From NCBI GenBank assembly GCA_964602655.1, contig CAZRSF010000004.1, positions 1 through 37,474 of the forward strand: a DNA stretch of 37,474 bases. Reading direction: 5' to 3'. The translations under genes were made by a program, and so were the position numbers. Under the pieces are notes generated by a model that saw nothing but the letters and a program-made list of their open reading frames with translations, made no database searches and was not told where the DNA came from. The DNA is from an uncultured Candidatus Moduliflexus sp. (GTDB taxonomy: Bacteria > Moduliflexota > Moduliflexia > Moduliflexales > Moduliflexaceae). Position 1 is the first letter of the stretch. Each line of letters opens with the position of its first letter. Of the stretch, positions 8,094 to 30,890 are shown in pieces.

Positions 8094-9218
8094 TTACCTC
8101 TTTCCACCTGCTTCGCTGTAAACATGCAGCAATTCGCGGGCGGCGCGTTCCCAGGAAAAACACTGAGCTTGCGCGTACCCTTTTTCTTGAAGTGACCGAT
8201 AGAGATTGGCGTCAGTCAAGACAGAGCGCATGGCGTCTGCCATCTCGCGGATATTCAGCGGATCAACGAGAATGGCGGCGTCTCCGACCACTTCCGGCAG
8301 CGAGGCCGCATTCGAACAAATCACCGGCACGCCGCAGGCCATCGCCTCTAATGGCGGCAGGCCGAAGCCTTCATATAACGAGGGAAAGACAAATAACGAT
8401 GCGCCGCGATAGAGATCGAATAAGCCGTCGTCTTCGACGAAATCGGTAAAAATTATTCGACCGCCGGGGTCTAAACGGGCGGCAAGATCATATAACTCGT
8501 GGCGCCGCGAGTCGCGTTTCCCGGCAATCACAAGCTGCGTCTGCTGATAGACCTCCTGATGCGTCATAAACGCCTGCGCCAATGTGGTAATATTTTTGTA
8601 GCCGTGATGCTTGCCAACGTAAAAACTATACCGTCCTTCGATGCCGTAGCGGCGTTTCAAGGCCATCTCACGCGAGTCATGCGTGTTTGCCTGTTCTGGT
8701 TGCTGGCATTGCTCATCCGCGCCATTGGGAATGACGTAAATGTTGTCTGGCGACACATGAAAAAAACGAGTCAGGTCTTTTCGAGAATGCTCCGAAACGG
8801 TGAGGATCGCTCTGGCGTACTTCGCCGCATAACCGAGCATGTATTGCGCGTAATAATGGGCAATTTTCGATGGGCATTCTTCGGGATAGAGATAATAGAT
8901 CAAATCGTGAATCGTCACAACATACGGGCAAGAAGGTATCATCGGCACATTGAAATTGGGGTAGTGCATCAAATCGATCTGTTGTTTGCGAATTTCTATT
9001 GGAAGGCGATATTGTTCCTTGATCGAATAAATCGGCGTCCAGGCTGGCAGATGCACCGGAATGAAATTGTCCTGCTGTATTGGAAGCATTTCCCCAGGCT
9101 GCAAAAACAGCACATAGTCATGCGGCGCATCAATGTGTGCCAAATGAATCAGCAGGTTTCGCAAATACCGTCCAATGCCGGTATTCCCAAGCATGCGCGC
9201 GTCAATTCCGATTCGCAT
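8094..9218 (-). CDS. Glycosyltransferase family 4
   Basis: Start chosen at MRIGIDARML (9218), the typical GT4 N-terminus. The ORF-track start at 9236 (MGKNEC) is an alternative. Carries the motif FPSLYEGFGLPPLEAMACGVPVICSNAASLPEVVGDAA. Paralog of the 16892-18025 gene. Confidence 0.8.
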   Translation of the reverse strand: MRIGIDARMLGNTGIGRYLRNLLIHLAHIDAPHDYVLFLQPGEMLPIQQDNFIPVHLPAWTPIYSIKEQYRLPIEIRKQQIDLMHYPNFNVPMIPSCPYVVTIHDLIYYLYPEECPSKIAHYYAQYMLGYAAKYARAILTVSEHSRKDLTRFFHVSPDNIYVIPNGADEQCQQPEQANTHDSREMALKRRYGIEGRYSFYVGKHHGYKNITTLAQAFMTHQEVYQQTQLVIAGKRDSRRHELYDLAARLDPGGRIIFTDFVEDDGLFDLYRGASLFVFPSLYEGFGLPPLEAMACGVPVICSNAASLPEVVGDAAILVDPLNIREMADAMRSVLTDANLYRSLQEKGYAQAQCFSWERAARELLHVYSEAGGKR

Positions 9219-10470
9219 ACATTCGTTTTTTCCCATAAGAAAACAGAGAGACTAACGCGGCAGCAGCGTAAATAATCACAAACGGAATCAGCGGAGCGCG
9301 AAAACGCGGCATGGAGGTAAAAAATATCGGAATCAGCATGGAACTGCCTAACAGAACGTAAATCAGAATATGCTGTTTCCAGCATATATACGAACCGAGA
9401 AGACCACATATCCCGAAAATTGCAATGCCTGTCCAGGCGATTCGATCCGCTGGATGCGGATAGGGACTCCAGAAAATTTTCAACTTCCTCCACACCAAAT
9501 TGGCGAATTGATCAGGATGTCCAAACATAAATTGTTTCGCCAACTGCGCAGCGCGTTCGTCTCTGGCTTTGACATCGGTCAAGGCGAGATCGGAAAATGG
9601 CTGATACGCTTCTGCCGGCGGCGTCCAGCCATTCGCCTGACCGCGTTCCAATAGCGTCAAATTATAATCGGTCGAAGGGCTATTGCCAAGATACATCGTC
9701 CAGCCGCCGTTGGAATTGACCAGCAGAAATGCGCCCGTGACGCGGTAATTCCGGTATGTCCAGGGGAGAATCACGCATGCCGCGACAAGACCGATGATCA
9801 TCAGCAATGCCGCGCCTTTTACCGGTGTTCGCCAATAGCGCATGATCACCCATAGCACGACACAACTCGCCATCGTGATATTTGACGCTTTGTTCAGCAT
9901 GAGCAAGCCGAAGGCGGCTCCGAGACCAGCGGCGTGCCAATAGATATGTTTTTCAGTTTCAGACAGGAGGAATGTCATGACGAGCAGCGTCAAAAAAATC
10001 GAAAGCCCTTCCGTCAGCGGCACATGGACTAAAAGTAAGAAAAACGGATAGCAACAACTGATGACGCCAGCCGCGATGCCAACCCGCTTTCCATATAAAT
10101 GCTCTCCGACCAGATAGGTCAAGCCGCAAGAAAACGCGCTGATAATTGCCAGCCCTATGCGCCCCCAAAATAGCTTGACGCCGAACAGAGCATACCACAG
10201 CGCAAGATACAACGGCGTGAGCGGCGGGCGGAATGTGCCGGGGATATTCGGATCATACGGAGGATCGATGGTGCTGGCGAAGAGATGCCGCTCGACCAGA
10301 TTTTTTGCGATCTGGTGATAGGACTCGGCATCAACGGAGAGGCTCTGGGGTCTATTTAAGGAAGGGCTGATGACAAAAATAAAGAGCATTCTGACCAAAA
10401 ATGCAATTCCAATCGTACTGATACAAACAATAATGCGTTGCTCAGGAATTCTGCTCTGGGTTATTTGCAT
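9202..10470 (-). CDS. GT-C fold membrane glycosyltransferase (ArnT / PMT / GT39-GT83-like)
   Basis: Polytopic membrane protein with a PMT_2/ArnT-like N-terminal region (first loop with an acidic DxE-like motif SVDAESYHQIAKNL). About 11 predicted transmembrane helices. Confidence 0.65.
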   Translation of the reverse strand: MQITQSRIPEQRIIVCISTIGIAFLVRMLFIFVISPSLNRPQSLSVDAESYHQIAKNLVERHLFASTIDPPYDPNIPGTFRPPLTPLYLALWYALFGVKLFWGRIGLAIISAFSCGLTYLVGEHLYGKRVGIAAGVISCCYPFFLLLVHVPLTEGLSIFLTLLVMTFLLSETEKHIYWHAAGLGAAFGLLMLNKASNITMASCVVLWVIMRYWRTPVKGAALLMIIGLVAACVILPWTYRNYRVTGAFLLVNSNGGWTMYLGNSPSTDYNLTLLERGQANGWTPPAEAYQPFSDLALTDVKARDERAAQLAKQFMFGHPDQFANLVWRKLKIFWSPYPHPADRIAWTGIAIFGICGLLGSYICWKQHILIYVLLGSSMLIPIFFTSMPRFRAPLIPFVIIYAAAALVSLFSYGKKRMYANRN

Positions 10471-10520
10471 AATGGCAAGAAAGGAGATTTGCAGAAAATA
10501 TAAACGTCTTCATCTCTCTT

Positions 10521-12053
10521 TCATGTTTCAGATCGGAGTTGCTTTTTTATACTACTCTCTTGTGAACCAATCATACCAATGCTCATAGTCAATCCTGCCA
10601 AAAACCAAAAATTCGGGGCTAATGGAGGAAAGAGCCAGAGCACATCGGCAATATTATGCACTAACGAAGCGATAAGTCCGGCAATGCCGCCATTCATTAA
10701 ACCTTGCAAACGAATATCGCTTATGCCGGCTCGCCATTTCATCAGGGTCATGAATAATTTTCCTAATGTCCATAACAATATAAGAAAGCCGACGATACCG
10801 AGTTTGACAAACAGATACACATACAAATTATCAACGACAAGGTCTGCACCCATTCCAATCCCGAATAATTTCCGAAAAAAGGGGAGCTTATTAAACATTT
10901 TTATTGCAGATTCGACACGTTGCAAACGTCCGGCGCTGAATTGATCCGGATCCGTTGCCAAACGACGAAAATTGTACCGCGCAAATTCCGGACGATCTGC
11001 GTTTTGATTGATAAACACAAAGAGGCTGATACCAAAAATAAGCGCGATTGCAAGCGTTTGAATTTTAATTTTTTTGCCAAAGATCGCTAATATCAGAATG
11101 CCAATAACTCCACCCAACAAGGCCCCGCGTGAATAGGTGAGGAATAATGCGTACCAGATACCGATAAATACGAGCAAAAGTATTATTTTTTTCCAACGAC
11201 TCTGCATGGCAAGAATGATTCCACCTAAAAACGGCAGGAACATCGCTAAATGGCCTCCAAAAATATTACCATTTTGAAACGTGGAATACAACTTTTGGCG
11301 ATTTCCTTCGATATAATTCCAACGCCCGCCGAATTCCGCATATCGAATCATGTTATATTGTTCAGTGATTCCTGGTACAGCGACATTTTCGAATCCTCGA
11401 CGTAATTGTAACGCGCCATAAAGACACACCAACACAAGAGAGATGATCAATACGAACAACAAAGCTCTCAGTCGAAAATGATTTTTCATCACCGTACATG
11501 TAAGGAAATAGACGGGAACAAATCCGAAAAACGCAGCAAATTCGATAAGAATCACTTTCGGAGGATTGTGATACATCAGACTGATTCCTGAATTTATCAC
11601 TCCAGAGAGCATAAAAACAAGCAACACACGAAATAGTGGCGTTTGAGTGGCGAGATGTTTAGAAAATAGCAAGCTGAGAGACCATAGGATAAGGGAGAAT
11701 AGTATCAGAATATTGGCAGACGTGAAGGGAACGCCAGAGATCGTTCTTCCAGACTTCGGGATCGTCACAGAAACGAAAAACGAGAGGAAAAAGAAAAGGA
11801 AGAGGAGGCGATGTTGAGAGGCTTGCGCGTCAGAATGAATAGAGATGGTATCTACGATAGATTGAGAACGGGAAAACGCATTGGCGTATAATATAACGGC
11901 GAATCCAGCAAATCCGGCGGCACCGATAAGCGTTGCTATCGGGGAAACTACAGTTGAAAGCAAGCCGATCCCTGTTCCTAAGATCAGGATACTGGTATAT
12001 TTCAAGAACTCTGGAGCGAGTTGGTTGGAAAAATTTCCTTGTGGTCTCATCAT
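10521..12053 (-). CDS. O-antigen ligase / Wzy-like polysaccharide polymerase family membrane protein
   Basis: 510-aa polytopic membrane protein with a large periplasmic loop, topology typical of the Wzy_C / O-antigen ligase family. The gene is AT-rich. Confidence 0.6.
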   Translation of the reverse strand: MMRPQGNFSNQLAPEFLKYTSILILGTGIGLLSTVVSPIATLIGAAGFAGFAVILYANAFSRSQSIVDTISIHSDAQASQHRLLFLFFFLSFFVSVTIPKSGRTISGVPFTSANILILFSLILWSLSLLFSKHLATQTPLFRVLLVFMLSGVINSGISLMYHNPPKVILIEFAAFFGFVPVYFLTCTVMKNHFRLRALLFVLIISLVLVCLYGALQLRRGFENVAVPGITEQYNMIRYAEFGGRWNYIEGNRQKLYSTFQNGNIFGGHLAMFLPFLGGIILAMQSRWKKIILLLVFIGIWYALFLTYSRGALLGGVIGILILAIFGKKIKIQTLAIALIFGISLFVFINQNADRPEFARYNFRRLATDPDQFSAGRLQRVESAIKMFNKLPFFRKLFGIGMGADLVVDNLYVYLFVKLGIVGFLILLWTLGKLFMTLMKWRAGISDIRLQGLMNGGIAGLIASLVHNIADVLWLFPPLAPNFWFLAGLTMSIGMIGSQESSIKKQLRSET

Positions 12054-12066
12054 TCGCCTCTTTTAC

Positions 12067-13158
12067 TCATTTCATTTCCTTCGACACCTGTTGCGTCAGG
12101 CTTTTTATAGACGTCATCAGTTCTTCTGTCGCTTTCTCATGACCAGCAACGTTCCAATGCCCATCATGCTGAAAATGATATTGCATCGGATTGCCGCCGG
12201 CCTCAAACACCGGACGTAAATCCACAACAGTAAAACCGTATCCACGCAGCAATGTGACAAAACGTTCGTGCATTTTCCTCTCGACCTCCTGATTATCGCC
12301 AAGCCACAGGGCACGGGAGGGAATTAATACCAGAAACATTTCAGAAATAGCATATTTTTGCCGCAATGCAAGCAATTTTTCGCAAGATTTATCAAGAATC
12401 TCTTCTGAATAGGTCAAACGAGAGATTGCGTCCGTATAATCATCAATGATGCCGTATCGCACGGCAATCGTATTTAGAAGCGGGTTTTGGTGGAACAGGC
12501 CAATCACAACGTTATACAACGCTAATTGCCGTCCTAAAAAAATTTTTAGTCGGAAAAATACGCCACGATGAATTTTATCATAGTATGGGGTGGAATCCGA
12601 AGACGCGTTTAATGGCGGTGAGCTGGTCTCAATCGGGGAATTCTGTGGTTGATTCATATAATCTTTCAGGTCATTTTCCATACATATTCCGACAACCAGC
12701 CGCTTAATCGTCGCGCCATGCTCAATGGCATATCGCACCAATTTTTCATAGCCATTAAAATCCGTTGGAATGCTGATATTATAAACTGGTTCGCCTAACC
12801 TGGCTTCTAATATATTCGAGTAACGCTGCTCTTCTTCCACGCCATGCCCGTAGCTGAACGAATCGCCGACAACGAACAGATCATCGGCGGTCGAATGTTT
12901 CAAATCTTTGACATCTCGCAGACCATATTGATTGAATCGTACCGTGACATTAAAATCGCCGGCTTTCATCCAATGATGGAATTCCGAATTTTCCTGTCCT
13001 AACAGCACCCCGTCCTTATTGAAATAAAATTTAACCATTGAGGACGGATCATAGACCGGAAACAACCATCGAACAGCAAATTCAAGGAAGAGAAACGATA
13101 GCCCCGCGGAAAACGTAAACAGCGCAAGATTCTTCGCAATTTTTTTAAGCAATTTCAT
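12067..13158 (-). CDS. Membrane-anchored SGNH/GDSL-type hydrolase or glycan O-acyltransferase-like protein (AlgX/AlgJ-like)
   Basis: Start re-picked at MKLLKKIAKNLALF (ATG 13158) to avoid a 150-bp overlap with the upstream GT4. N-terminal transmembrane anchor. Block-I GDS motif LFVVGDSFSYGHGVE. AT-rich gene. Confidence 0.55.
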   Translation of the reverse strand: MKLLKKIAKNLALFTFSAGLSFLFLEFAVRWLFPVYDPSSMVKFYFNKDGVLLGQENSEFHHWMKAGDFNVTVRFNQYGLRDVKDLKHSTADDLFVVGDSFSYGHGVEEEQRYSNILEARLGEPVYNISIPTDFNGYEKLVRYAIEHGATIKRLVVGICMENDLKDYMNQPQNSPIETSSPPLNASSDSTPYYDKIHRGVFFRLKIFLGRQLALYNVVIGLFHQNPLLNTIAVRYGIIDDYTDAISRLTYSEEILDKSCEKLLALRQKYAISEMFLVLIPSRALWLGDNQEVERKMHERFVTLLRGYGFTVVDLRPVFEAGGNPMQYHFQHDGHWNVAGHEKATEELMTSIKSLTQQVSKEMK

Positions 13159-13166
13159 CGTATTTT

Positions 13167-14270
13167 TCACCGCGCAATTAAGGGGGTATACATCTCCAAA
13201 AGGCGTTCTGACATTATCGCGACAGAATATGATTCCATTACACGCTTTCGACCCGCTGCTCCAAGACGTTCGCATTCCTGAGGCGAGAAAAGCAGTGCGT
13301 TGATGTGAGCAAGGCATGCCTGAAGATCATGTTCCGGGAAAATTCTCCCGGCCTCGCCGATCACTTCAGGAATAGAGCCGGAATCCGAGCCAATAACTGG
13401 TACTTCACAACTCATCAATTCAATAACGGCTCTGCCGAATTGCTCTTTCCAGCGCGGCGTTGTTTGAGACGGCACAATTCCAATATCCATGCAATTCAAA
13501 TATGCTGGGAGCTTCTCATATTCAATATTCCCGGCTAAATGGACACGGTGCGCGACGCCCTGTTCGGCGACGCGCGTTCGAAATCCCTGTTCTGCCTCCC
13601 CGCTGCCAACCACCAACAGATGTGCTTGTTCAGGCAGAGATCGCATCATCTCCACTAACAGAAAAATACCTTTACTCTCTAATAATCTTCCACAATAGCC
13701 GATGACGAATTTTCCGTCAAGTCCTAATCGCGCTTTTAAATCGTCAACACAGAGCTTTCGAAACATCCTGTGATTCACGCCGAGCGGAAAGACTGTGATT
13801 GGTTTTGTCAAGCCTTCCTGTTGTAATGTGTCTTTGACACCGGAACTACAGACAAACGCCTGTTCCGCCTGTCGTATGACATACGCCATCGGCAGGCGAA
13901 ACAACGGATGAACATTGCCCGGAATATTTTCGGCAGAATAGACGAATATTCGGCTTTTCAGACCGCAAAGATTTCGAAATAGCACAGTCTGAAACGCAAT
14001 CATTCCGCTGATCTCTTCGAAGATATGGAGAATATCCGGTCGGATGACGCGAATATCATGGAGAAGACGCGGGGAAAAGCAGGCTCCACGAATATGCCAA
14101 GGGAAAAAAAGGCGCCGTTGAAAAATACTCGAATGTAGTGTGGGCTCTATCGTTTCAGTATCAGGAATAACTACTGAGCATTCGAATGCATGATTGTTAG
14201 CCTGCACATATCGTAAAAAATCAGTTACTTCACGAACAAAACTTTTCGTAATAATCAATACGCGCTTCAT
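13167..14270 (-). CDS. Glycosyltransferase family 4
   Basis: Motifs GYCGRLLESKGIFLLVE and IVPSQTTPRWKEQFGRAVIELMSCEVPVIGSDSGSIPEVI (EX7E-like). AT-rich gene. Confidence 0.8.
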   Translation of the reverse strand: MKRVLIITKSFVREVTDFLRYVQANNHAFECSVVIPDTETIEPTLHSSIFQRRLFFPWHIRGACFSPRLLHDIRVIRPDILHIFEEISGMIAFQTVLFRNLCGLKSRIFVYSAENIPGNVHPLFRLPMAYVIRQAEQAFVCSSGVKDTLQQEGLTKPITVFPLGVNHRMFRKLCVDDLKARLGLDGKFVIGYCGRLLESKGIFLLVEMMRSLPEQAHLLVVGSGEAEQGFRTRVAEQGVAHRVHLAGNIEYEKLPAYLNCMDIGIVPSQTTPRWKEQFGRAVIELMSCEVPVIGSDSGSIPEVIGEAGRIFPEHDLQACLAHINALLFSPQECERLGAAGRKRVMESYSVAIMSERLLEMYTPLIAR

Positions 14271-14279
14271 TTCGAAACG

Positions 14280-15158
14280 TTACCATGCAAAAATATGCGA
14301 ATCCTCTTCTTCCTTAATGGAATACCCCAATTTTTTTAAGAGCGCAACTAATTTGGGGTGTTGAGGCTGTTTTGACGCATCAAGATGATATGAGGAAATC
14401 GACCATTTGGGACGGTAGGCGCGGATAAGCTCTCTTGCGCCGAGTATGGCGGATTCTTCAGCGCCTTCGATGTCTATTTTGATAAAATCTACTCGTGCTA
14501 ATCGTAATGTCTCCATCAAATGGTCAAGCGTTGTCACCTCAACGGTTTGATAAAACGTATGATAATTTGTTGGGGCTTGAGGAATCATGCTCGAATTCAG
14601 ACAATAATCAGAAACACAGATGTCTGCTAAGCCTGGTTGATCGGCGACTGCACAGGGAACAACAGTGACATTGGCAATATTATTGGCAAGGAGATTTTTA
14701 TGGATCACAGTATGCGTGACGGGTTCGATAGCGACAATCTGCCCGCTTCGACCAATGTATTCGGAGAAATACAGCGTTGTTGTGCCAATATTAGCCCCCA
14801 CATCCAATACCGTGTCCCCCTCATTGATAAAGACATGACGCGAAAAAAATCGAGGCAGCACGAATGTTTCCGTAAGTACTTGGGTAATGCCCAGTAAAAA
14901 GAAATGAGGATCATGGATGATAAAATCGGGGGTGAAATACACTTTATATGGAGGAAGATCGAAATACTGTTCTCCATCTGGAGGAGTAACCAAACGTTTA
15001 TGCAAAAACCGGTCAACAATTCGGTCTCGGTAAATATACGCATGGCGGATGATTTCCAGCCGTTCTGCTACTGTAAGATATGGGTTGCCCCACAATAGTT
15101 GCAATCGCTGCCTGATCGTTCTGATAATTTTGTCGAGTGGTAAATTACAATTCCTCAT
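14280..15158 (-). CDS. FkbM-family SAM-dependent methyltransferase
   Basis: Motifs VLDVGANIGTTTLYFSEY ... IVAIEP ... FIKIDIEGAEESAILG are characteristic of Methyltransf_21 (FkbM). AT-rich gene. Confidence 0.8.
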   Translation of the reverse strand: MRNCNLPLDKIIRTIRQRLQLLWGNPYLTVAERLEIIRHAYIYRDRIVDRFLHKRLVTPPDGEQYFDLPPYKVYFTPDFIIHDPHFFLLGITQVLTETFVLPRFFSRHVFINEGDTVLDVGANIGTTTLYFSEYIGRSGQIVAIEPVTHTVIHKNLLANNIANVTVVPCAVADQPGLADICVSDYCLNSSMIPQAPTNYHTFYQTVEVTTLDHLMETLRLARVDFIKIDIEGAEESAILGARELIRAYRPKWSISSYHLDASKQPQHPKLVALLKKLGYSIKEEEDSHIFAW

Positions 15159-15179
15159 GTATTCAAATTCTCCGTTCTT

Positions 15180-16001
15180 TTACTGTACCAGTTGTTTCAA
15201 AAGGAGAATTCCGTGTATTGCCCAAGACGTTATGTTGCCATAATGCTTTCGATAAAACCGCCGCAAGCTGTCATCTCGCAACCGTTGCAGCCGTCGCGCC
15301 TGTTCCGGCGATTTCTGGCTGCTGCCGCGATTATGATGATAGACCGCGAGTTCGCCGAGATAATAGGTCGCCCAGCCTGCTCGCGCCGAGCGATAACACC
15401 AGTCAATATCTTCGGCGTACATAAAAAAATCTTCGTTTAATAGGCCGATCTGCACCATCGTTTCGCGGCGAATCATGAACACCGCACCGATCAAATAATC
15501 TACCGCAAAATTTGTTGTGACATCATGGCGCGTCATCCGACTTTTCCAACGCATTCGCCGCGACGGGCTGATTTTATCGCGCAGCATGTCGAGCGGCATT
15601 CTTGGAAAATCGTCGAACGACGCCTGCCACGATCCATCCGAATTCAAGAGGCGCGTTCCCGCAATACCGACCGTCGAATGCGCGTCGAGAAACGCGACCA
15701 TCTGCGCTATCGCGTTATCGCGCAACGCCGTATCGCTGTTCAACAGGAGTAGATACCGCGCCGAAGCCTGCCGCAACGCCTGATTATTCGCTTTGGAAAA
15801 CCCGACATTTTCCTGATTGCGAATCAGCCGCACTTGCGAAAACTGCTGCGCCACCATCTCCGCGCTGCCGTCGGACGAGCCGTTATCCACCACCCACACC
15901 TCGAACGTAATTTCTAATGTGTGCCGATAGACCGATTCAAGACACTGCCGCAGCAAGTCCCGCGTGTTCCAGTTGACGATAATCGCAGAAACGTCAATCA
16001 T
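15180..16001 (-). CDS. Glycosyltransferase family 2
   Basis: N-terminal VSAIIVNWNTRDLL ... VWVVDNGSSDGS and a DxD-like motif. 4-bp overlap with the upstream methyltransferase. Confidence 0.85.
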   Translation of the reverse strand: MIDVSAIIVNWNTRDLLRQCLESVYRHTLEITFEVWVVDNGSSDGSAEMVAQQFSQVRLIRNQENVGFSKANNQALRQASARYLLLLNSDTALRDNAIAQMVAFLDAHSTVGIAGTRLLNSDGSWQASFDDFPRMPLDMLRDKISPSRRMRWKSRMTRHDVTTNFAVDYLIGAVFMIRRETMVQIGLLNEDFFMYAEDIDWCYRSARAGWATYYLGELAVYHHNRGSSQKSPEQARRLQRLRDDSLRRFYRKHYGNITSWAIHGILLLKQLVQ

Positions 16002-16882
16002 GGTTTCGTTCCGATCATAAGCAACGTCCGGCCTGTCGGCAAATCCAATACCGGCTTTGTGGCGCGATATAAATGCGGAAAAATCAGCGCGTTATATCCG
16101 GCAATCAGCGCGGTAATCAGCGGAAAACAGCGATTGTAGAGCGGTTGCAGTTTGCCCAGCGTCCGAATGCCGATGACATCTTGAATCCCGGCGCGTCCTT
16201 GCAAAAAACCGTGATCGCGAATCATCCAGGGATGAATCAGATTGCAAAACGTTTTCACTTTCGGCGGATTCGAATAGCCGCGATAGGCGATACGCAGACC
16301 AGCCAGTTTCACTTCCTCGGTCAATTCGTCTAAATCGAATTCCCGCACATGCCCATACGCTTTTTCGCCATACACCGCTTCGTCGTCGTCTTTCTCATGC
16401 TCGTGAAGATGCTTGTTCGGCGTCGTGATAATCATGCTGCCGCCTGGTTTCAAGACTCGATGAATTTCGCGTAGCACGGCCTGATACTGTTCGAGATGCT
16501 CGATCACCTCGACAAACAAGGCAACATCAACAGAATTATCGCCAAACTGCGGCAGGCCGTTTTGCAAATCGTGATGAAAAAATTCGACATCGAGCGGCAG
16601 ATCGGGATGGCTCGCGCGGGTCTGCTTAGCATTTTCGCGGGCATGTCCGATTTCACGTTCGCGAATATCCAACCCGACCACGCGGAATCCGTTCAACGCA
16701 AATGTCAACGCTTTGATGCCAGGCCCGCAGCCGATGTCAAGCAGGGTTTTGCCCTTGCCGTCAGGGAAAAAGATGTCCATGACATCCCAGAATTGCGTTT
16801 CGCACGGGCATTTGATGCGTCCGCTGAATTCTCCTAATCGCGTAGGAGGAATCGCGTTCCATAACATATCTCGATAAGCCAT
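15998..16882 (-). CDS. Class I SAM-dependent methyltransferase
   Basis: Motif I LLDIGCGPGIKALTFALNGFRVVGLDI plus an acidic post-I motif. Rossmann-fold methyltransferase. Confidence 0.8.
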   Translation of the reverse strand: MAYRDMLWNAIPPTRLGEFSGRIKCPCETQFWDVMDIFFPDGKGKTLLDIGCGPGIKALTFALNGFRVVGLDIREREIGHARENAKQTRASHPDLPLDVEFFHHDLQNGLPQFGDNSVDVALFVEVIEHLEQYQAVLREIHRVLKPGGSMIITTPNKHLHEHEKDDDEAVYGEKAYGHVREFDLDELTEEVKLAGLRIAYRGYSNPPKVKTFCNLIHPWMIRDHGFLQGRAGIQDVIGIRTLGKLQPLYNRCFPLITALIAGYNALIFPHLYRATKPVLDLPTGRTLLMIGTKP

Positions 16883-16891
16883 AAAAATCCC

Positions 16892-18025
16892 TTATACGAT
16901 AGAAGTCAACACGTCAAGAGTTTTTTGCGCGCACAACTCCCAGGAAAACTGTTTGGCTCGCATCTGCCCCATTTCTCGGTAGGCTCGATGCAGGTCGCGA
17001 TCCGTCAATAATTGATGCAGCCGCTCCGCCATGTTGTCAACGCTGTACGGATCGAACAGCATCGCGGCATCCCCGGCGACCTCCGGCAGCGACGATGTAT
17101 TGGAGCAGGCCACCGGCACGCCGCACGCCATCGCCTCTAAGACCGGCATCCCGAAGCCTTCGTACAACGATGGCAGCGCAAAGACATCCGCGCCGTTAAT
17201 CAGCGCCGGCATATCCTGATCCGGCACGTAGCCTGTCCAGATCACCTCTTGCTGCAACGAGAGTCGCGTAATCGTGCCTAAAATTTCATCTTCCGGCAAA
17301 TCGCGATATTGCTGGCCGATCAGCACAAGTTTATGCGGGATGCGATGCCGTTGCTTCAACAGGTAAAACGCCTGGATCAAGCGCGGGATATTTTTCCGGC
17401 GCTGCAACGTGCCGATGCACAGGATAAACGGTTCGGGCAAACGATAGCGATTCAGCGTCGCCTGGACAACATCGCGTTCGAGCGGCTGAAAGCGCCTGTG
17501 GACGCCATGATGAACGGCGATGACCTTCTCCGGCGCGATATTGTAATAGGCTAACACATCCTGGCGTGTGGCTTCCGAAACCGTGATAATTTTGGCGGCG
17601 GCGCGGATACTGTGCTGCGTGGAACGCTTCAGCCAATAGCGCAGAGCCCGAGAAAAACAATCAGGGAAAAAGAGAAATGCGACATCGTGTATTGTCACCA
17701 CACTTTTTTTCGGCAAATACCAGAGCGGCATGGTGGACGTCGGGAAAAAATAGGCGTCTTGCGGATGCTTGATGAGTTCGAGCGGCAAACGAAGCTGCGC
17801 CCATAACAAAGGAAATTCGAGGACTCTCGCGGCGACTTCCGATGCGCCTGTCGGCGTGATGCCTAACGTGTTCAGCGGCGCGGGATCGGCGTGGCGCAGA
17901 TAGAGCGTGAACCGGTGTGCGGTGTCCGGCGCATTGATCATGGCTTGAATCAGATGGTACGCATAATAGCCCACGCCCGCTTTCTGTCCCGCTGCTGCGC
18001 CTGTCGCTTCGATGCCGATCTTCAT
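16892..18025 (-). CDS. Glycosyltransferase family 4
   Basis: MKIGIEATGA N-terminus. Motif FALPSLYEGFGMPVLEAMACGVPVACSNTSSLPEVAGDAA. Its ATG overlaps the stop of the upstream hybrid kinase (ATGA). Confidence 0.85.
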   Translation of the reverse strand: MKIGIEATGAAAGQKAGVGYYAYHLIQAMINAPDTAHRFTLYLRHADPAPLNTLGITPTGASEVAARVLEFPLLWAQLRLPLELIKHPQDAYFFPTSTMPLWYLPKKSVVTIHDVAFLFFPDCFSRALRYWLKRSTQHSIRAAAKIITVSEATRQDVLAYYNIAPEKVIAVHHGVHRRFQPLERDVVQATLNRYRLPEPFILCIGTLQRRKNIPRLIQAFYLLKQRHRIPHKLVLIGQQYRDLPEDEILGTITRLSLQQEVIWTGYVPDQDMPALINGADVFALPSLYEGFGMPVLEAMACGVPVACSNTSSLPEVAGDAAMLFDPYSVDNMAERLHQLLTDRDLHRAYREMGQMRAKQFSWELCAQKTLDVLTSIV

Positions 18026-20127
18026 GATGCCAAATACTCCTTCTGCACTCCGTTCATCGGAAGCAGCACCTCGAAACTCGTGTGGCCGGGGCGCGACATC
18101 ATGCGGATTTCGCCATGATGACGTTCCACAATTTGCTGCGCAATGCCAAGCCCTAAGCCAGAGCCTTCGCCCTGATCTTTCGTCGTAAAATAGGGATCGA
18201 AAATTTTCCCTTGAATTTCTGGCGGAATGCCAGGGCCGGTATCGGTAATGCGCACCGCGATTTTTCGTTCCGCTGGCGGGGAAATCTTCTGCGCAATCCC
18301 TTCAATGATTTCATCGCCCGATTCGACCTGCTTCGGGGACAGATACGTTTCGATGGTCAGCGTTCCTTTCCCTTTCATCGCCTGAATCGCGTTATGAATG
18401 ATATTCGTCCAGACCTGATTCAATTCGTTCACATAACAGGGGATTTTGGGGAGTTCGTCAAAGTGTTTGATCACCTCAATCCCATATTTTATTTGACTTT
18501 GCAGGATGATCATCGTCGTTTCGATCCCCTCATGAATATCCACTTCTTCGACTTTGGCCTGATCCAAACGGGAGTAGAGTTTCAGCGCATTCACAATGCG
18601 CGTAATCAGCCGAATGCTGGTTTTTATATCGCGCGAGGCGATGACGATTTTATGACATTTTTCTAAGAAATCAAGCACGCGTTCGGAATGATAGGCCCGC
18701 AACAGTTGCAACAATTCGGCATTTAGCCCGTCACTCAACCCGAATCGGGACATTTGCTTGGCAATCTGTCGAATATTCGGCAACCCGCTTGTCTCCAGGA
18801 ATTGTTCATATCGTTTGGTTTCTTCTCGCAGCGACATCGTGCTTTTGCGCTCTTTTTCGAGCGATTCGATGAATGCTGCGATGATATTCAATAAGCTCGC
18901 ATGCGCTTCGCGCGCTAACGGTTCTCGCGTCAATTCGCGGAAACTCTCCACAATCGAAGCGAGCGCCGTCGTCATATTCGACGTTGCCGCATTGATCGCT
19001 CCGGCGGGCGTGTTGATTTCATGCGCCACGCCCGCGACAAGCTGCCCGAGCGACGCCATTTTTTCCGACTGCACTAATTGCGCCTGCGTCGTTTTCAGTT
19101 GGGTAATCGTCTTTTCAAGCTCAAGATTCGATTGCTCCAACTGTTTGAATAATAAGGCGTTATCGAGGACGATTGAGGCTTCGTTCGTAAACACCTGGAG
19201 AATGTCTATCGTTTCCGGGTGAATCGCGTTCTCTTTCGTGGTGCCGATTCCTAAAATCCCGATCACGCTGTTACGAATCTTCAGAGGAAACGCAAGAAAC
19301 GTCGCGACTTGATGGTCGTCTTTGACCTGTTTCCGCTCCTGTTGCGACTGGTCGGCGTCTTTCAAAATCGTGACTTGCACATGCTCGATGTTTTCTAACG
19401 GCTGATGCTCTTTATACTCTTCGATCATGCGTTGTTTGACGGTTTGCAGAAATTGGCGGCTGACGGGCGCCATTAAAAATAAGAAATTATGGTAGAGTTT
19501 TTCTTCCTGGAGAAAAATCGAAGCGACCTGGAATTCGCACACTCTGGCGAGCAGGCTGAAAATAGACTGAATCGAGGTAAAAAACGAGTACATGTTAATG
19601 GCGAGATAACTCAATTCATTGACGATGGTCGCCTGAAACAACTGCTGATCCAGAATATGATTCACTTGTTCCAAAACCGATATTTCGGTGATCGGCTGAC
19701 AAGCATCAGCCGCTGTCTGGCCGGATGTCGCATATTCTTCGTGTTCGACGTTGTCGGATCGGCAGCGCTCAAGCATGGCTTGAATTTTCGAAAATAACTC
19801 GTCTTCCGCGTCGAAATCCTTGGTAATAAAATCGTCTGCGCCCGTTGACATGCCCCAGAAGCGATCTTTTTTTTGCCCTCTGGATGTGAGAATAATAATC
19901 GGGATGGCTTTCGTGCGTTCATCGCTTTTTAAGAGCCGACAGACTTGATAGCCGGTCATTTTCGGCATTTCGATATCTAACAGCACCAAATCCGGTTTCG
20001 TCTGATAGGTTTTCGAAATCGCCTCAATCCCGTCAGACGCGCTGACCACTTCATATCCCTGGGATTCTAATAAAAAGCGAACGACTTCGATAATAGTCGG
20101 ACTATCGTCAGCAATCAAAATTCTCAT
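18022..20127 (-). CDS. Hybrid two-component protein: N-terminal REC receiver, then GAF, then HisKA/HATPase_c histidine kinase
   Basis: REC: ILIADDSPTIIEVV...LLDIEMPKMTGYQVC. Central GAF-like region. H-box GVAHEINTPAGAI. G-boxes DTGPGIPPE and GSGLGLGIAQQIVERHHG. Confidence 0.85.
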   Translation of the reverse strand: MRILIADDSPTIIEVVRFLLESQGYEVVSASDGIEAISKTYQTKPDLVLLDIEMPKMTGYQVCRLLKSDERTKAIPIIILTSRGQKKDRFWGMSTGADDFITKDFDAEDELFSKIQAMLERCRSDNVEHEEYATSGQTAADACQPITEISVLEQVNHILDQQLFQATIVNELSYLAINMYSFFTSIQSIFSLLARVCEFQVASIFLQEEKLYHNFLFLMAPVSRQFLQTVKQRMIEEYKEHQPLENIEHVQVTILKDADQSQQERKQVKDDHQVATFLAFPLKIRNSVIGILGIGTTKENAIHPETIDILQVFTNEASIVLDNALLFKQLEQSNLELEKTITQLKTTQAQLVQSEKMASLGQLVAGVAHEINTPAGAINAATSNMTTALASIVESFRELTREPLAREAHASLLNIIAAFIESLEKERKSTMSLREETKRYEQFLETSGLPNIRQIAKQMSRFGLSDGLNAELLQLLRAYHSERVLDFLEKCHKIVIASRDIKTSIRLITRIVNALKLYSRLDQAKVEEVDIHEGIETTMIILQSQIKYGIEVIKHFDELPKIPCYVNELNQVWTNIIHNAIQAMKGKGTLTIETYLSPKQVESGDEIIEGIAQKISPPAERKIAVRITDTGPGIPPEIQGKIFDPYFTTKDQGEGSGLGLGIAQQIVERHHGEIRMMSRPGHTSFEVLLPMNGVQKEYLAS

Positions 20128-20148
20128 CAGAAGAGAACGCCGCCGCGC

Positions 20149-22356
20149 TTATACCAGACTTTTAATCGTCTCAAGCAAGCGGTGTTGTTCGAAATTTCCT
20201 TTCGTAATATACGCATTGGCCCCAACCTGAAGCCCGCGTTTTTTATCGCTTTCTCGCGCTAATGAGGTCACAATAATCACCGGCACATTCGCATATTGCG
20301 GAATCTGGCGCAGGCGCTGCGTGAAGGTAAACCCATCCATGCGCGGCATTTCGATATCGGTGATAATCGCCGCATACGTGGTCTGTTCGAGATGTTGGAG
20401 CGCGTCAACGCCATCGTTCGCGACATCAACCAGATAGCCGGAAATTTCTAAAATATGCTTTTCGATTTCCGCAGTATTCATCGAATCTTCAACGACAAGG
20501 ACGCGCGGCGCGATATATGATGGCGGTTGGGCTGAGACTGAAGGCGTTTCGAAGGTCATCCGCGCAATTCGGGCGAGCACTTCGGGAATATGCAGCAGCA
20601 GCATCACCGAGTTATAGCTCGAAATGGCCGCGCCTGCAATCATTTTCGTCGCATTGCGGATATGCGGCGGTAATTGTTTCACGACGACATCCTGCTCATC
20701 CATGATGGCATCAACAATAAGACCGACGCGTTTTCCCTGCGCGCGAGCAATCAGCACGAAATACTGCTCGGGGGATGTCGCGGCGGATGGGCGACATTGC
20801 AGCACGCTGCCGAGTTCGACTAAATAAATCAATTGATTTCTATGACGAATCGCCAGATGTCCCGTCACCTGAAAGCAGGTTCGAACAGGCACATGCAGCG
20901 TCTCTTCGATGGCGTCAATCGGGATGGCAAAGACGCTGTTGCGAGTGGTGATAATCAAACTTCGCAGCGACGTCAGCGAGACCGGAACCGTCAAGACGCA
21001 GGATGTCCCTTTCTGCGGCGTAGAGGCGAGCGTCACGGTGCCTTTCAGCGCCTCAATCGTGGATTTCACGATGTCCATGCCCACGCCGCGCCCTGACATG
21101 TCGGTGATCAGGTCGCTGGTACTCAACCTCGGCAAAAAGGCTAAATTGATAAGTTCCGCCTCATTCAGACTTTGCGCCGCCTCTTCTGTCAACAGGCCGC
21201 GTTGAATCGCCCGCGCTTTGAGCTTTTCACACCGAATTCCTTGCCCATCGTCGGTGACTTCGATCCGAATGTGTCCGCTTTGATGCGACGCGGAAATCGT
21301 GATCAGGCCGGTCGGCGATTTCCCTTGTTTTGAGCGTTCTTCAGGAATCTCGATGCCGTGATCGATACAATTCCGCAGCAAATGATTCAATGGCGCGTCC
21401 AATTGTTCGATGATTTTTTTATCCAGCGTCGTGTCTTCTCCGAACATTCTCACCTCAATCTGTTTCCGCGCGTCTTTCGCCATATCGCGCACCGCCCGCG
21501 GAAATCGTTCGAAAATGTCAGCGAGGGGAAGCATTCGCATATTCAGCACATCGTCGTATAATTCCGTAATCGCCATTCCTCTGACGGCGAAATCGTCACG
21601 CTGCATACGGAACAACTGTTCAATCTCTTTCAACAACGACAGGCTGTGTTCGAGAATGGCGTCGAACGCGGGTTGATGCGTTCGATTGAAATGATGGTGG
21701 CGCTGAAGCGACTTTGTCAGAATTCTGGCTTTTCGCTGCACATCTTTCAGCGCGCCGAGACGATATTCTGATTTTTTATGGCTGATGGCGATTTCCCCGA
21801 TCAGCCTGACAGCATGATCTAATTTTTCTACGGCGACTCGAATCGTCTCGCCGCTTTTCGCCGTGTCAAGCATGCGAACTTCCGGCGTCTGAGCGCCAGC
21901 GATGTCAGGCGATTCTGCCAGTCTTCCACGTGTTTTTTGACTCTCATCGGTATCAGGCAGCGCAACATCTTGTCCTTGAGCGGCCTGGAGTAACGCTTCG
22001 CGGATTGGCGCAATATCGAGAGAATCGGCCTCGTCGCGTTGGACTGCTTGAGTGCAGGCGCTGAGCATATCAACGCTTTCGAACAGCAATTCGATGATAG
22101 AAGGCGTGAGGGCGATATTCCCATCTTGCAAGGCGATAAGCACATCTTCGATGTTATGGGTCAGTTGGCTGATTTGATCGATATGGAGAATGTTGGCAGA
22201 ACCTTTGAGGGTATGAACCGAACGCAACATGTGCTTCAAACGGTCAGTCTGCTGAGGCGATTTTTCTAATTGAATCAACCCCTCGTTGACTGTTTGAATC
22301 GCCTCATTCGCTTCTTGCGTAAACTTGCCGATAAAGATGGATCGATCAAATTTCAT
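20149..22356 (-). CDS. CheA-like histidine kinase fused to a C-terminal REC domain (HPt, dimerisation, HATPase, CheW-like, REC)
   Basis: HPt with SVHTLKGSA. N-box LLRNCIDHGIE. G1 DDGQGI. G2 GRGVGMDIV. CheW-like segment. C-terminal receiver VLVVEDSMNT...ITDIEMPRMDGF. Confidence 0.85.
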   Translation of the reverse strand: MKFDRSIFIGKFTQEANEAIQTVNEGLIQLEKSPQQTDRLKHMLRSVHTLKGSANILHIDQISQLTHNIEDVLIALQDGNIALTPSIIELLFESVDMLSACTQAVQRDEADSLDIAPIREALLQAAQGQDVALPDTDESQKTRGRLAESPDIAGAQTPEVRMLDTAKSGETIRVAVEKLDHAVRLIGEIAISHKKSEYRLGALKDVQRKARILTKSLQRHHHFNRTHQPAFDAILEHSLSLLKEIEQLFRMQRDDFAVRGMAITELYDDVLNMRMLPLADIFERFPRAVRDMAKDARKQIEVRMFGEDTTLDKKIIEQLDAPLNHLLRNCIDHGIEIPEERSKQGKSPTGLITISASHQSGHIRIEVTDDGQGIRCEKLKARAIQRGLLTEEAAQSLNEAELINLAFLPRLSTSDLITDMSGRGVGMDIVKSTIEALKGTVTLASTPQKGTSCVLTVPVSLTSLRSLIITTRNSVFAIPIDAIEETLHVPVRTCFQVTGHLAIRHRNQLIYLVELGSVLQCRPSAATSPEQYFVLIARAQGKRVGLIVDAIMDEQDVVVKQLPPHIRNATKMIAGAAISSYNSVMLLLHIPEVLARIARMTFETPSVSAQPPSYIAPRVLVVEDSMNTAEIEKHILEISGYLVDVANDGVDALQHLEQTTYAAIITDIEMPRMDGFTFTQRLRQIPQYANVPVIIVTSLARESDKKRGLQVGANAYITKGNFEQHRLLETIKSLV

Positions 22357-27612: not shown

Positions 27613-28281
27613 CTATAGATATTCTTTTACACCGCGAAAGGTGACTCGATGAATCGGGCAGGGGCCATGCGCCTTGATGGCGTTACGGTGCTGCTGCGTG
27701 CCGTAGCCTTTATGTCCGGCAAAGCCGTAAGATGGAAATTGCCGGTCGTATTCCTTCATCAGGCGGTCGCGCGTGACCTTGGCGATAATTGACGCCGCCG
27801 CAATCGAGAGACTCAAGCTGTCGCCTTTGATGATGCTGCACTGCGGCATGGGCATTTTCGAGAGTTTGACCGCGTCCAGGAGGAGATAATCCGGCGGGAT
27901 AGGCAGATTGGCGACAGCTTCTTTCATCGCAACATGCGTGGCTTGAAGCACATTGATACGGTCAACGATGTCCGCAGCGGCCATGCCGACGCCGATACTC
28001 AGCGCATGTTCCTGGATGACTGCAAAGAGTCTCTCGCGTTGATGCGGCGTCAGTTGTTTGGAATCGTTGATTTCGGCGTGCATCCAATCGCGCGGCAGGA
28101 TGACCGCCGCGGCGACCACCGGCCCGGCAAGGCAACCGCGTCCGGCTTCATCAAGCCCGGCGACAGCGGTCGCGCCCTGCTGATACGCATAGCGTTCGTA
28201 GCGCAACATACGCTCCATACGGTCAGCTTCGTTTTGCGGCGTTAAAAATCGGTCAGGAAATATGAGTTGGCGACGAGACAT
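27613..28281 (-). CDS. rnhB: Ribonuclease HII
   Basis: Active-site motif AGLDEAGRGCLAGPVVAAAVIL. RNase HII length and conserved C-terminal region. Confidence 0.9.
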   Translation of the reverse strand: MSRRQLIFPDRFLTPQNEADRMERMLRYERYAYQQGATAVAGLDEAGRGCLAGPVVAAAVILPRDWMHAEINDSKQLTPHQRERLFAVIQEHALSIGVGMAAADIVDRINVLQATHVAMKEAVANLPIPPDYLLLDAVKLSKMPMPQCSIIKGDSLSLSIAAASIIAKVTRDRLMKEYDRQFPSYGFAGHKGYGTQQHRNAIKAHGPCPIHRVTFRGVKEYL

Positions 28282-28660
28282 AACAATAAAAGTACCGGCA
28301 GGGCTTAGGTTCTCAATATCGCTCGTGGTGAGCCTGCCGAATCATGAACGCCGTTCCTCTTCGACAAGCTCAGGCAAATGAAAAAATCCTGTAAACTCTA
28401 CAGAGCTTAACAGTCCCGGGGGGCCTTTTTAATTAGGCGGCAAGGATGCTGGAAGAAATTAATACACAGTGCTGGAAATAATTACACACTTCATGGCAGG
28501 GTTTTGTGTACTTATTTACGAAACTCAGTACTAATATCATCTGTCTTGTCCGTCTTTCATGAATTTAGATACTTTTGTTGAGTAATTTCTTGCAGAAAGT
28601 TAAGCGGAAGACTCAGTAAGCGTTAAAGTCGTCTCCACATATGTCTTTGAAATGCCGGGA

Positions 28661-29815: not shown

Positions 29816-29969
29816 TTTTTTCCTTTTTAAAAGAGATTAATCGCAAACCAAAACCATTCGCCGTCGCATATCCAGCCGATCAATGCCAATCCCTAAATGA
29901 TCGATACAAGCAGGGCAGCGTGACATCGTCACATTCGCAAACTGGGACTGAACATTGGTACTATCGGCT

Positions 29970-30890
29970 TTATGATTTCTTTTTCATCCCATCTAATAAC
30001 TTTTTGGCAATAGCGGGTTCCACATAGATTATTTCTTTTCCTTTTCGAAGACTGTCGAGGACATTCCCAAGACGGATCGCCTTGAACGCATTGCATATGA
30101 GTCGGGGACTTAAATGAATAAATTCTTTGTCTGGATACTCTCTAATCATTCTATGGTAGAAACCGATCTCTGATCCGATGACGAATTTCTTGTTATGTAA
30201 TTTCCCTATGAGATTAGCCATTTCACCAGTTCCCACTGAGTAATCTGCCATATCTACAACTTCAGGCTTGGCTTCGGAATGCACCAGGAGACAACCATCC
30301 GGGTGTTCTCTTCTGACCCTTTCGACATCCGATGTGTCTATAGAATTATAAACATTGCAAAATGGATTTCCAGGATAGGGAATCACCTTTTTTTTGCATT
30401 TTTGAATGGCATGTAATGCGCAGTTGCCATCCCCTACGAAGAGCACCTCAGGCGCATCGACACGATTTATTGTCGAGACCACTTCTCCAGGCAGTGCAAA
30501 AAAATCCGCGAGAGACTTCACTTCTAAAGGCGCTACCGCATAGCACACCATAGGTACACCAGGATGATCCCGTTTGAACTCCTGAATTTTTTCAAAGATT
30601 AAGTTCTTATGATTAGCTACGGGACATTCGGCTAACGTCGGCACATAAACTGTCAACTCACGATCGGACAAAAGCATTCGTGCCGTTTCCGCAAAGAATG
30701 TAGGACCGAGTACCATAATATCTTTTTTATCATCAGGAAGGTTCATGATCCCTTCGAAGAATCCCCGACTATCGGATAGGCTGTCAGCGACAGGCTGTAC
30801 CTCTTCAGGTGTGTAGGAATGCCCGATGATTCGGATGTTTTTCTCTCTCTTGAGAGAGATGATTTTTTCTACAAGTTCTCTGTTTTCCAT
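29970..30890 (-). CDS. nadA: Quinolinate synthase A
   Basis: Collinear similarity to NadA, e.g. IIGHSYTPEEVQPVAD, FMAETA, PDGCLLVHSEAKPEVVDMADYSVGT, FVIGSEIGFYHRMIREYPDKEF. SD GAAGGA. AT-rich gene. Confidence 0.85.
   Translation of the reverse strand: MENRELVEKIISLKREKNIRIIGHSYTPEEVQPVADSLSDSRGFFEGIMNLPDDKKDIMVLGPTFFAETARMLLSDRELTVYVPTLAECPVANHKNLIFEKIQEFKRDHPGVPMVCYAVAPLEVKSLADFFALPGEVVSTINRVDAPEVLFVGDGNCALHAIQKCKKKVIPYPGNPFCNVYNSIDTSDVERVRREHPDGCLLVHSEAKPEVVDMADYSVGTGEMANLIGKLHNKKFVIGSEIGFYHRMIREYPDKEFIHLSPRLICNAFKAIRLGNVLDSLRKGKEIIYVEPAIAKKLLDGMKKKS

Follow-up and report, generated by a model that had tools for sequence, protein, structure and literature searches.

The stretch of DNA analysed in this work (hereafter the window) comprises 37,474 nucleotides from an uncultured Candidatus Moduliflexus sp. 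(NCBI GenBank assembly GCA_964602655.1, contig CAZRSF010000004.1, positions 1 to 37,474 of the forward strand), which belongs to the phylum Moduliflexota (KSB3). It carries a surface-glycan cluster, and inside this cluster lies a block of four genes, between positions 10350 and 15260, that is poorer in GC than the DNA on either side. The four genes code for a Wzy-like membrane protein, an SGNH-type enzyme, a GT4 glycosyltransferase (GT4_c) and an FkbM-family methyltransferase (Table 1). In related loci, as in the window, conserved arms bracket a centre that always holds GT4_c and a Wzy-like protein with 12 hydrophobic segments. The arms consist of a GT-C-fold glycosyltransferase (GT-C), GT4_b, a radical SAM protein and GT4_a on one side, and of a GT2 glycosyltransferase, a methyltransferase and GT4_d on the other; two signalling kinases join the second arm in the window clade and in Candidatus Vecturithrix granuli. 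The centre also contains decoration genes that change from locus to locus (FkbM and class-I methyltransferases, SGNH/AlgX-like enzymes and extra GT-C-like transferases). Besides, the Wzy and GT4_c alleles are much older than the DNA that flanks them, and the centres turn over. The block is probably the hypervariable, exchange-prone centre of a surface-glycan cluster that is conserved across the Moduliflexota.

The genes of the low-GC block

The gene identities proposed for the block in the first-pass annotation of this DNA are upheld by Pfam. The Wzy-like protein has 12 hydrophobic segments and is the most diverged core gene product of the locus, with 44-70% identity to its positional homologues. 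It obtains only sub-threshold matches in NCBIfam, and the Wzy_C family also includes ligases (WaaL); the product would be a polymerase or a ligase, and its role is putative. The open reading frame listed for the SGNH gene (12067-13317, 416 aa) overlapped the GT4_c gene by 150 nt, and alignment to orthologues of 362-363 aa places the true start at Met54. This protein matches PF16822 (ALGX; 33.8 bits, cut-off 26.5) and PF13472 (Lipase_GDSL_2; 33.6 bits, cut-off 32.9), each match covering only the C-terminal ~65 residues, and it has a single N-terminal hydrophobic segment (aa 11-29) as membrane anchor.

Hydrophobic segments are not found in GT4_c and FkbM. The best NCBIfam similarity of GT4_c is with HpsO (185.8 bits, E 1e-54), under the cut-off of 575, and the protein is 47-69% identical to its positional homologues. 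The FkbM protein lies above the curated cut-offs of both PF05050 (87.3 bits against 22.7) and TIGR01444 (101.7 against 37.7). Apart from this FkbM domain, NCBIfam gives no equivalog-level name for the genes of the block.

Table 1. Features of the glycan cluster in the window and accessory proteins of related loci (GC3, GC at third codon positions; positions are those of the locus named)
Feature	Locus	Coordinates	Strand	GC	GC3	Assignment
Low-GC block	window	10350..15260	.	43.4%		between maximum-likelihood change points
GT4_a	window	5563-6651	-	0.558	0.645	conserved arm (flank), Pfam
B12-binding radical SAM	window	6648-8087	-	0.541	0.648	conserved arm (flank), Pfam
GT4_b	window	8094-9236	-	0.509	0.572	conserved arm (flank), Pfam
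GT-C-fold (PMT_2) membrane glycosyltransferase	window	9202..10470	-	0.500	0.567	right-hand anchor (flank), Pfam PMT_2 39.6 bits
Wzy-like / O-antigen-ligase-family polytopic membrane protein, 510 aa	window	10521..12053	-	0.421	0.427	block, Pfam Wzy_C 34.3 bits (cut-off 31.7)
SGNH/AlgX-like acyl-esterase or O-acetyltransferase, 363 aa	window	12067..13158	-	0.440	0.456	block, Pfam ALGX, Lipase_GDSL_2
GT4 glycosyltransferase GT4_c, 367 aa	window	13167..14270	-	0.469	0.443	core gene of variable block, Pfam Glycos_transf_1 104 bits
FkbM-family SAM methyltransferase type A, 292 aa	window	14280..15158	-	0.433	0.416	block, Methyltransf_21, TIGR01444
GT2 glycosyltransferase	window	15180..16001	-	0.530	0.631	left-hand anchor (flank) in window, L003, L004 and L006, Glycos_transf_2 95.8 bits
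Class-I methyltransferase (MT11)	window	15998-16882	-	0.515	0.576	conserved arm (flank), Pfam
GT4_d	window	16892-18025	-	0.560	0.675	conserved arm (flank), Pfam
REC-GAF histidine kinase	window	18022-20127	-			conserved arm, Pfam
CheA-CheW-REC hybrid kinase	window	20149-22356	-			conserved arm, Pfam
Accessory protein, ~490-513 aa	L009	7343-8872
Accessory protein, ~490-513 aa	L010	6158-7678
Accessory protein, ~490-513 aa	L011	2987-4525
Accessory protein, ~490-513 aa	L012	2723-4264
Accessory protein, ~490-513 aa	L012	5397-6875
Accessory protein, ~490-513 aa	L019	14340-15824

Extent and reality of the GC dip

Sliding GC takes values of 0.40-0.50 over 10251-15250 and of 0.51-0.60 on either side. 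The best two-point likelihood fit over positions 5000-20000 sets the change points at 10350 and 15260 (log-likelihood gain 61.7), that is, about 40 codons into the 5' end of the GT-C gene and about 27 codons into the 3' end of the GT2 gene. The interval 10380-15170 has 43.5% GC, against 53.1% in 5563-10379 and 53.7% in 15171-18025, and it is the lowest-GC 4.8-kb stretch in the whole window, where the other non-overlapping stretches of the same length have a mean GC of 0.516 (standard deviation 0.025, minimum 0.472). The contrast lies mostly in third codon positions, with a GC3 of 0.436 in the block and 0.617 in the flanks. The amino-acid composition of membrane proteins was considered as a cause of the dip and was rejected, because GC2 (second codon positions) barely differs and third positions dominate; the soluble GT4_c and FkbM proteins share the low GC as well.

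Sliding GC, per-gene GC and the change-point fit all agree on the AT-rich four-gene stretch that the first-pass annotation had noticed, and the change points fall where its borders had been drawn, near the 5' end of the GT-C gene and at the FkbM/GT2 junction. However, the contrast of about 40% against 55-60% GC that it had given by eye is too large, as the measured difference is about 10 points (44 vs 53). The distinct tetranucleotide usage expected from a mosaic origin is found only marginally: the composition-corrected correlation of the block with the rest of the window (0.489) is the lowest of the chunks, yet it stays near the range of the other 4.8-kb chunks (0.52-0.66) in a measure that is noisy at this length. 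In an independent assembly of run SRR8925824, both borders are covered by two contigs that are 100% identical to the window over 5489-11157 and 14989-16301, so that the dip is no artefact of assembly.

Low GC is also found elsewhere in the window. A second low-GC stretch (0.41-0.46), at 28250-31000, covers the housekeeping genes nadA (GC3 0.42) and class-V aminotransferase (GC3 0.46), and ribosomal protein genes past it are low in GC3 too (rplS 0.48; probable rpsP, 33890-34234, 0.38). Two small open reading frames, at 1484-1921 (+; no Pfam match) and 36887-37264 (+), have a GC of 0.36 and a GC3 of 0.31 and 0.39, respectively, and are stronger compositional outliers than the block. Since the housekeeping genes nadA, rplS and class-V aminotransferase share the low GC3, low GC alone is weak evidence of foreign origin here.

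The cluster in related genomes

The Wzy-like protein has 52 homologues in a set of 5.8 billion proteins, all but a few fragments being full-length (~500-550 aa). They include proteins of Candidatus Moduliflexus flocculans (64% identity), Candidatus Vecturithrix granuli (46%) and a metagenome-assembled genome (MAG) labelled 'candidate division KSB3', and every homologue whose context was read sits in this cluster. The loci compared below are the fetched contexts of protein-database homologues (L003 to L015, L003 being Candidatus M. flocculans), to which L017 and L019 were added by a profile scan of GTDB species representatives that returned four genomes, all of them Moduliflexota. Single-protein scans, with the radical SAM protein against genome contigs and with GT-C against metagenome contigs, returned no relatives.

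The cluster is syntenic in L003, L004, L006, L007, L009, L010, L011, L013, L017 and L019. In the window clade and in Vecturithrix granuli the order, with histidine kinase as HK and methyltransferase as MT, is CheA-HK-GT4_d-(MT)-GT2-[centre]-GT-C-GT4_b-(slot)-radical SAM-GT4_a; the other loci share this right arm and differ on the left. The flank proteins of the window are 73-91% identical to those of L003, L004, L010 and L013, which makes its source a relative of Moduliflexus. GT-C is 73-76% identical to the proteins of the close clade, although its first 40 residues show 35-45% identity among close relatives, compared with 60-92% further in. GT2 is 77-80% identical to its counterparts in L003 and L004, and GT4_a, the radical SAM protein and GT4_b, with 74-91% identity to the close clade, are syntenic wherever the related loci extend there. 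The order of the arm at 15998..22356 is repeated in L003, L004 and L006. The two kinases, of which the REC-GAF histidine kinase overlaps GT4_d by 4 nt, are syntenic with the cluster in these same three loci and not in L007, L009, L011 and L013; they abut the cluster, and this arrangement may mean that glycan synthesis is controlled by signals. The packing of the cluster is operon-like, with all genes on the minus strand and gaps of 8-50 nt, and a promoter and terminator scan gave counts at shuffle level that mark no separate transcription units. Beside the cluster, at 2989-5478 (+), there is a gene for an 829-aa vault-protein-like product with MVP_shoulder (E 1.7e-27), Vault_3 and Band_7 domains and no match in NCBIfam.

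Every related locus that extends far enough has GT4_c and the Wzy-like protein at this site, across two classes of the phylum, which rules out a foreign four-gene island. The SGNH gene is intact in the window, L003, L004, L010 and L013 (73-84% identity of the window protein to the other four), split in L007 and L017, and absent from L006, L009, L011 and L019. The closest homologues of the Wzy-like protein, SGNH and GT4_c are their positional counterparts in Moduliflexota (64-70% identity for Wzy). Integrase and transposase domains were not found by Pfam, a tRNA scan of the window found none, and the search for border repeats gave only chance-level short repeats. The view taken in the first-pass annotation, that a discrete, laterally exchanged four-gene cassette is embedded in a higher-GC cluster, is not borne out, given the positional conservation of the Wzy-like protein and GT4_c, the presence of SGNH in most loci, the absence of mobility genes, tRNA and border repeats, and the low GC common to all versions of the block. 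What does stand is its expectation that the AT-rich block is the part of the locus that varies among relatives, as shown by its gene content, by the divergence of its proteins and synonymous sites and by the placement of its genes in trees, even though the Wzy-like protein and GT4_c are kept at the site throughout.

Variable gene content of the centre

At least seven gene sets occur between the left anchor and GT-C, and methyltransferase, SGNH and extra GT-C-like genes have been gained or lost in at least four slots. The centre is FkbM(A)-GT4_c-SGNH-Wzy in the window, GT4_c-SGNH-Wzy in L003, MT11-like-GT4_c-SGNH-Wzy in L004 and MT-GT4_c-SGNH-Wzy-FkbM(B) in L013. It reads FkbM(A)-512aa-GT4_c'-MT-Wzy' in L011, 509aa-GT4_c-Wzy-MT in L009 and VapBC-GT4_c-split SGNH-Wzy-FkbM(B) in L007, and L017 is as L007 with the addition of the methyltransferase of L009. 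Between GT4_b and the radical SAM gene there is a second slot, which has no gene in the window but holds an SGNH-like gene in L004, an FkbM gene in L006 and a gene for a ~500-aa protein in L010.

Among the four genes of the window, FkbM is the only one that is patchily distributed. Counterparts of FkbM(A), at 84-85% identity, were found only as the first gene of the centre in L011 and in L012, and are absent from L003, L004 and L013; the FkbM(B) genes, which occupy other slots in L006, L007, L010, L013 and L017, share just 23-26% identity with it. Between the window and L011, FkbM(A) is 85% identical in amino acids and 80.5% in nucleotides, where the arms reach 74-81% and 78%, respectively. 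Judged from these sequences, loss and transfer would explain the patchiness of FkbM(A) equally.

The accessory proteins of ~490-513 aa (Table 1) are probably extra GT-C-fold transferases, as suggested by PMT_2 matches in three of the five scanned (E 0.007 to 4e-6, one of them above the cut-off); the match is absent in the proteins of L009 and L019, and the one at 2723-4264 of L012 was outside the scan. In L007, a VapB-VapC toxin-antitoxin pair (7363-7763) is located in the slot between the methyltransferase and GT4_c. The split SGNH genes consist of two open reading frames each, at 9149-9996 in L007 and at 6022-6869 in L017.

Divergence, tree conflict and replacement between shared flanks

Protein identity within the window clade is 73-93% for the arms, 65-78% for GT4_c and 59-76% for Wzy, and across all loci the Wzy-like proteins are clearly homologous (44-76% identity). 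Synonymous divergence (dS) was obtained from dN/dS calculations by NG86, in which the GT4_b pairs with L003 have no value owing to the shorter L003 gene call. This call (12807-13826) gives 339 aa, compared with 371-380 aa elsewhere, and is followed by a 545-nt gap (13827-14371) before the radical SAM gene, into which the alignment with the window continues; a frameshift or a short gene call may be the cause.

In close pairs of loci the dS of Wzy is 1.0-1.5, against 0.08-0.45 in the flanks, which is 4-7 times the flank level. Thus, between L007 and L009 the five flank genes have values of 0.20-0.34, GT4_c 0.41 and Wzy 1.46, and between L004 and L010 the flanks have 0.08-0.45, SGNH 0.275 and Wzy 1.00. 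As SGNH is as AT-rich as Wzy and yet its dS stays at the level of the flanks, low GC3 alone does not inflate the dS of Wzy. In the comparison of the window with L003, L004 and L013, the values are 1.65-1.99 for GT4_c, 1.17-1.74 for Wzy, 0.56-1.19 for the arms and 0.83-1.34 for SGNH.

The trees of the arms and of the centre place some loci differently. L011 groups with L004 and L010 in the GT-C tree (100% bootstrap) and inside the close clade in the GT4_b tree (100%), whereas the Wzy tree sets it outside the close clade plus L007/L009 (89%) and the GT4_c tree joins it with L007/L009 (83.5%), the latter tree being in conflict with the flanks for both L011 and L012. The Wzy tree also pairs L003 with L004 (98.5%), while the arms pair L004 with L010 (100%).

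Direct comparison of loci shows different centres between shared flanks. L011 and L013 have ~81% nucleotide identity on both sides, the alignable parts being OMP-CoaE on the left and, on the right, the last ~200 nt of Wzy into GT-C-GT4_b, but their centres hold different genes and are unalignable. Likewise, L007, L009 and L017 have flanks that are 88-97% identical and carry three different gene sets. L011 also retains a decayed 3' fragment of GT2 (1881-2060) directly upstream of FkbM(A), with stops and frameshifts, and otherwise has no GT2 at that site. The fragment corresponds to aa 208-269 (the last ~60 codons) at 53% identity and is homologous to 15180-15402 of the window; its position beside FkbM(A) implies that the L011 centre derives from a source that used to have the GT2-FkbM(A) junction of the window. 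In the relatives, exchange has its borders at the 3' end of GT2 and at the 3' end of Wzy or the 5' end of GT-C, which is where the GC change points of the window lie.

What the low GC means

In 11 of 11 loci the centre is poorer in GC than the arms, the difference being 3-11 points for GC and 5.5-19 points for GC3. Wzy has a GC of 0.41-0.45 in all of them, and the arms have 0.48-0.57; the Wzy value is kept across divergences at which synonymous sites are saturated. Across the 11 cluster genes of the window, GC3 tracks protein conservation (Spearman 0.94 and 0.81). In the trio L004, L010 and L013, third positions of SGNH show 19 changes from A or T to G or C (W->S) and 20 in the opposite direction (S->W), with an implied equilibrium GC3 of 0.44 and a current value of 0.45, whereas the arm genes of the same trio show an excess of S->W changes. 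SGNH thus gives no sign of amelioration towards the GC of its flanks.

The balanced flux of SGNH and the low GC of every version of the block do not fit with a recent import from a low-GC donor. The low GC looks like a standing property of the block, or of the pool of alleles that feeds it, and not like the footprint of a donor. These counts suggest that the block is near mutational equilibrium and that the conserved arms are held above theirs. That genes of this class are actively kept at an equilibrium of low GC can be put forward tentatively, and with more doubt than confidence.

Origin of the block and possible explanations

Three other explanations of the block deserve attention. Its GC profile, a step-like drop of 10 points with sharp borders, is what would be left by a four-gene island imported recently and in one event from a low-GC donor that is not a member of the Moduliflexota, and the tetranucleotide correlation, the lowest of the chunks, goes in the same direction. 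Besides, beyond a group at 58-85% identity, the homologues of FkbM are at most 48% identical and belong to unrelated MAGs (Promethearchaeota, Tepidisphaeraceae, Oligoflexia). However, the deviation in tetranucleotides is marginal, the same GC dip is seen in the relatives, integrase, transposase, tRNA and flanking repeats were not found in the searches described above, and all Wzy-like homologues whose context was read are in this cluster. Relatives have orthologues of Wzy, SGNH and GT4_c in the corresponding positions (64-84% identity), and FkbM(A) is 85% identical in L011, a value similar to those of the flanks there (GT-C 74-76%, GT4_b 80-81%). Such an import is therefore very improbable and is largely refuted for three of the four genes. 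An assembly or binning chimera, in which AT-rich DNA of another organism was joined in, deserves practically no credence: the contig is metagenome-derived, and Logan contigs from the same run end within the block (11157 and 14989), but these independent contigs cross both GC borders at 100% identity, and the gene order is shared by ten other loci, which come from various samples and assemblers and of which two belong to published genomes.

A purely vertical history is less easily set aside, although it is unlikely. According to it, the genes were always there, evolved faster and drifted towards AT under weak codon selection or weak biased gene conversion, as poorly expressed membrane and decoration genes might do. 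Conservation of position across the phylum, the recovery of the major clades in the Wzy and GT4_c trees, the correlation between GC3 and protein conservation, the compositional equilibrium and flank-like dS of SGNH and the low GC3 of the housekeeping genes nadA (0.42), rplS (0.48) and class-V aminotransferase (0.46) are all compatible with it. Nevertheless, faster protein evolution does not raise the dS of Wzy 4-7 fold while the equally AT-rich SGNH stays at flank level, and a vertical history does not account for the different placement of L011 by flank and centre genes (84-100% bootstrap), for the flanks without a common centre of L011 and L013 together with the GT2 scar of L011, or for the three gene sets between the near-identical flanks of L007, L009 and L017.

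The exchange-prone centre that is preferred here has to be set against several points that weaken it. The excess dS of the window's own genes is just about two-fold and near saturation, and the trees place its Wzy, SGNH and GT4_c in the clade where one would expect them, so that the case for exchange in the window itself is indirect, suggestive but not decisive. The trees are neighbour-joining trees on p-distances with 8 taxa, the relatives are mostly metagenome contigs with unestablished strain relationships, and the direction-of-change counts are small, parsimony-based and reliable for SGNH only. Furthermore, no flippase or initiating phosphoglycosyl transferase was matched by Pfam among the genes at 5563-18025; both may be encoded elsewhere in the genome.

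If the block is such a centre, exchange would proceed by homologous recombination, with crossovers in the arms (at the 3' end of GT2 and at the 5' end of GT-C), and would take place among lineages of Moduliflexota, not from an outside donor. The block would set the fine structure of the glycan. GT4_c would make a lineage-specific linkage, and the Wzy-like protein would polymerise or ligate that unit on the outside of the membrane, a role that could explain why both vary together. The SGNH enzyme may O-acetylate or de-acetylate the product and FkbM may O-methylate a sugar, and it is conceivable that pressure from phages or grazers keeps the diversity.

Relation to known polysaccharide loci

O-antigen (rfb) clusters of Salmonella enterica and Escherichia coli have conserved ends and a central, form-specific part with glycosyltransferase, wzx and wzy genes, in which GC is distinctly lower; GC decreases in the direction of the specific genes and is lowest in the processing genes, and the Wzy alleles found at one position are highly divergent and 'unlikely to have diverged in situ' (PMC3715488). 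The low GC of wzx and wzy in many polysaccharide clusters 'needs explanation' (PMC3715488). The Moduliflexota locus resembles these clusters in its conserved arms, its variable low-GC centre and its divergent Wzy alleles. Nevertheless, it contains neither wzx nor an initiating transferase, its Wzy-like proteins are homologous (44-76% identity) whereas those of O-antigen clusters are unalignable, and its GC contrast is milder (44 vs 53%, compared with 28-37 vs 51-52%). It also adds GT-C, the B12 radical SAM protein and two kinases, the latter in part of the phylum only. Finally, the comparison made here is across species or genera of an uncultured phylum, in contrast to the serotyped strains of the O-antigen work.

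The cps loci of Streptococcus pneumoniae and similar Wzy-dependent capsule loci have conserved flanking genes that act as recombination anchors around a lower-GC, serotype-specific centre with wzy, glycosyltransferases and acetyl- and other modifying transferases, and whole centres are replaced between identical flanks. Regulatory genes of the cpsA-D type and a flippase were not seen in the cluster of the window, and the likeness rests on comparison between loci, not on serotype switching within a species. By analogy with such loci, the block may be serotype-determining. In Vibrio cholerae O1, the WbeT/RfbT methyltransferase converts serotype Inaba to Ogawa, the antigen depending on whether this gene of the O-antigen locus is present. 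The FkbM protein of the window is, like WbeT/RfbT, an FkbM-related methyltransferase of a glycan locus that is present or absent among loci, but it is not a member of that family, as its match to Pfam V_cholerae_RfbT (20.5 bits, E 3e-4) is under the cut-off of 27.9. A further likeness is with the hormogonium polysaccharide (hps) glycosyltransferases of cyanobacteria that, like the organisms studied here, are filamentous: GT4_c is nearest to HpsO, and GT2 has weak matches to HpsE and HpsN. This likeness is at family level only (GT4_c scores 185.8 against the equivalog cut-off of 575).

The KSB3 genome paper describes genomes of ~50% GC and more than 7 Mb and is silent on polysaccharide and glycosyltransferase genes (PMC4312070). 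The pattern itself has long been known from O-antigen and capsule loci, and in this sense the finding is sound but ordinary. What it adds is the extension of this architecture, with conserved arms and an exchangeable low-GC centre, to an uncultured phylum of filamentous wastewater bacteria. A phylum-wide surface-glycan locus with a clear variable region could serve to mark strains or types of bulking filaments, and its variable region could guide work on the diversity of phage or grazer receptors. Besides, as the same block can be traced through lineages that differ in their GC, the cause of AT-richness in wzy-type genes could be examined on it as in a clean natural experiment. The most interesting residue of the analysis is the signs that the low GC is maintained and not inherited from a donor. 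If this were true, low GC would signal that a GC-raising force (codon selection or biased gene conversion) is missing, or that AT-rich coding is selected; and if it were general, reading low-GC wzx and wzy genes as imports from low-GC donors would be wrong.

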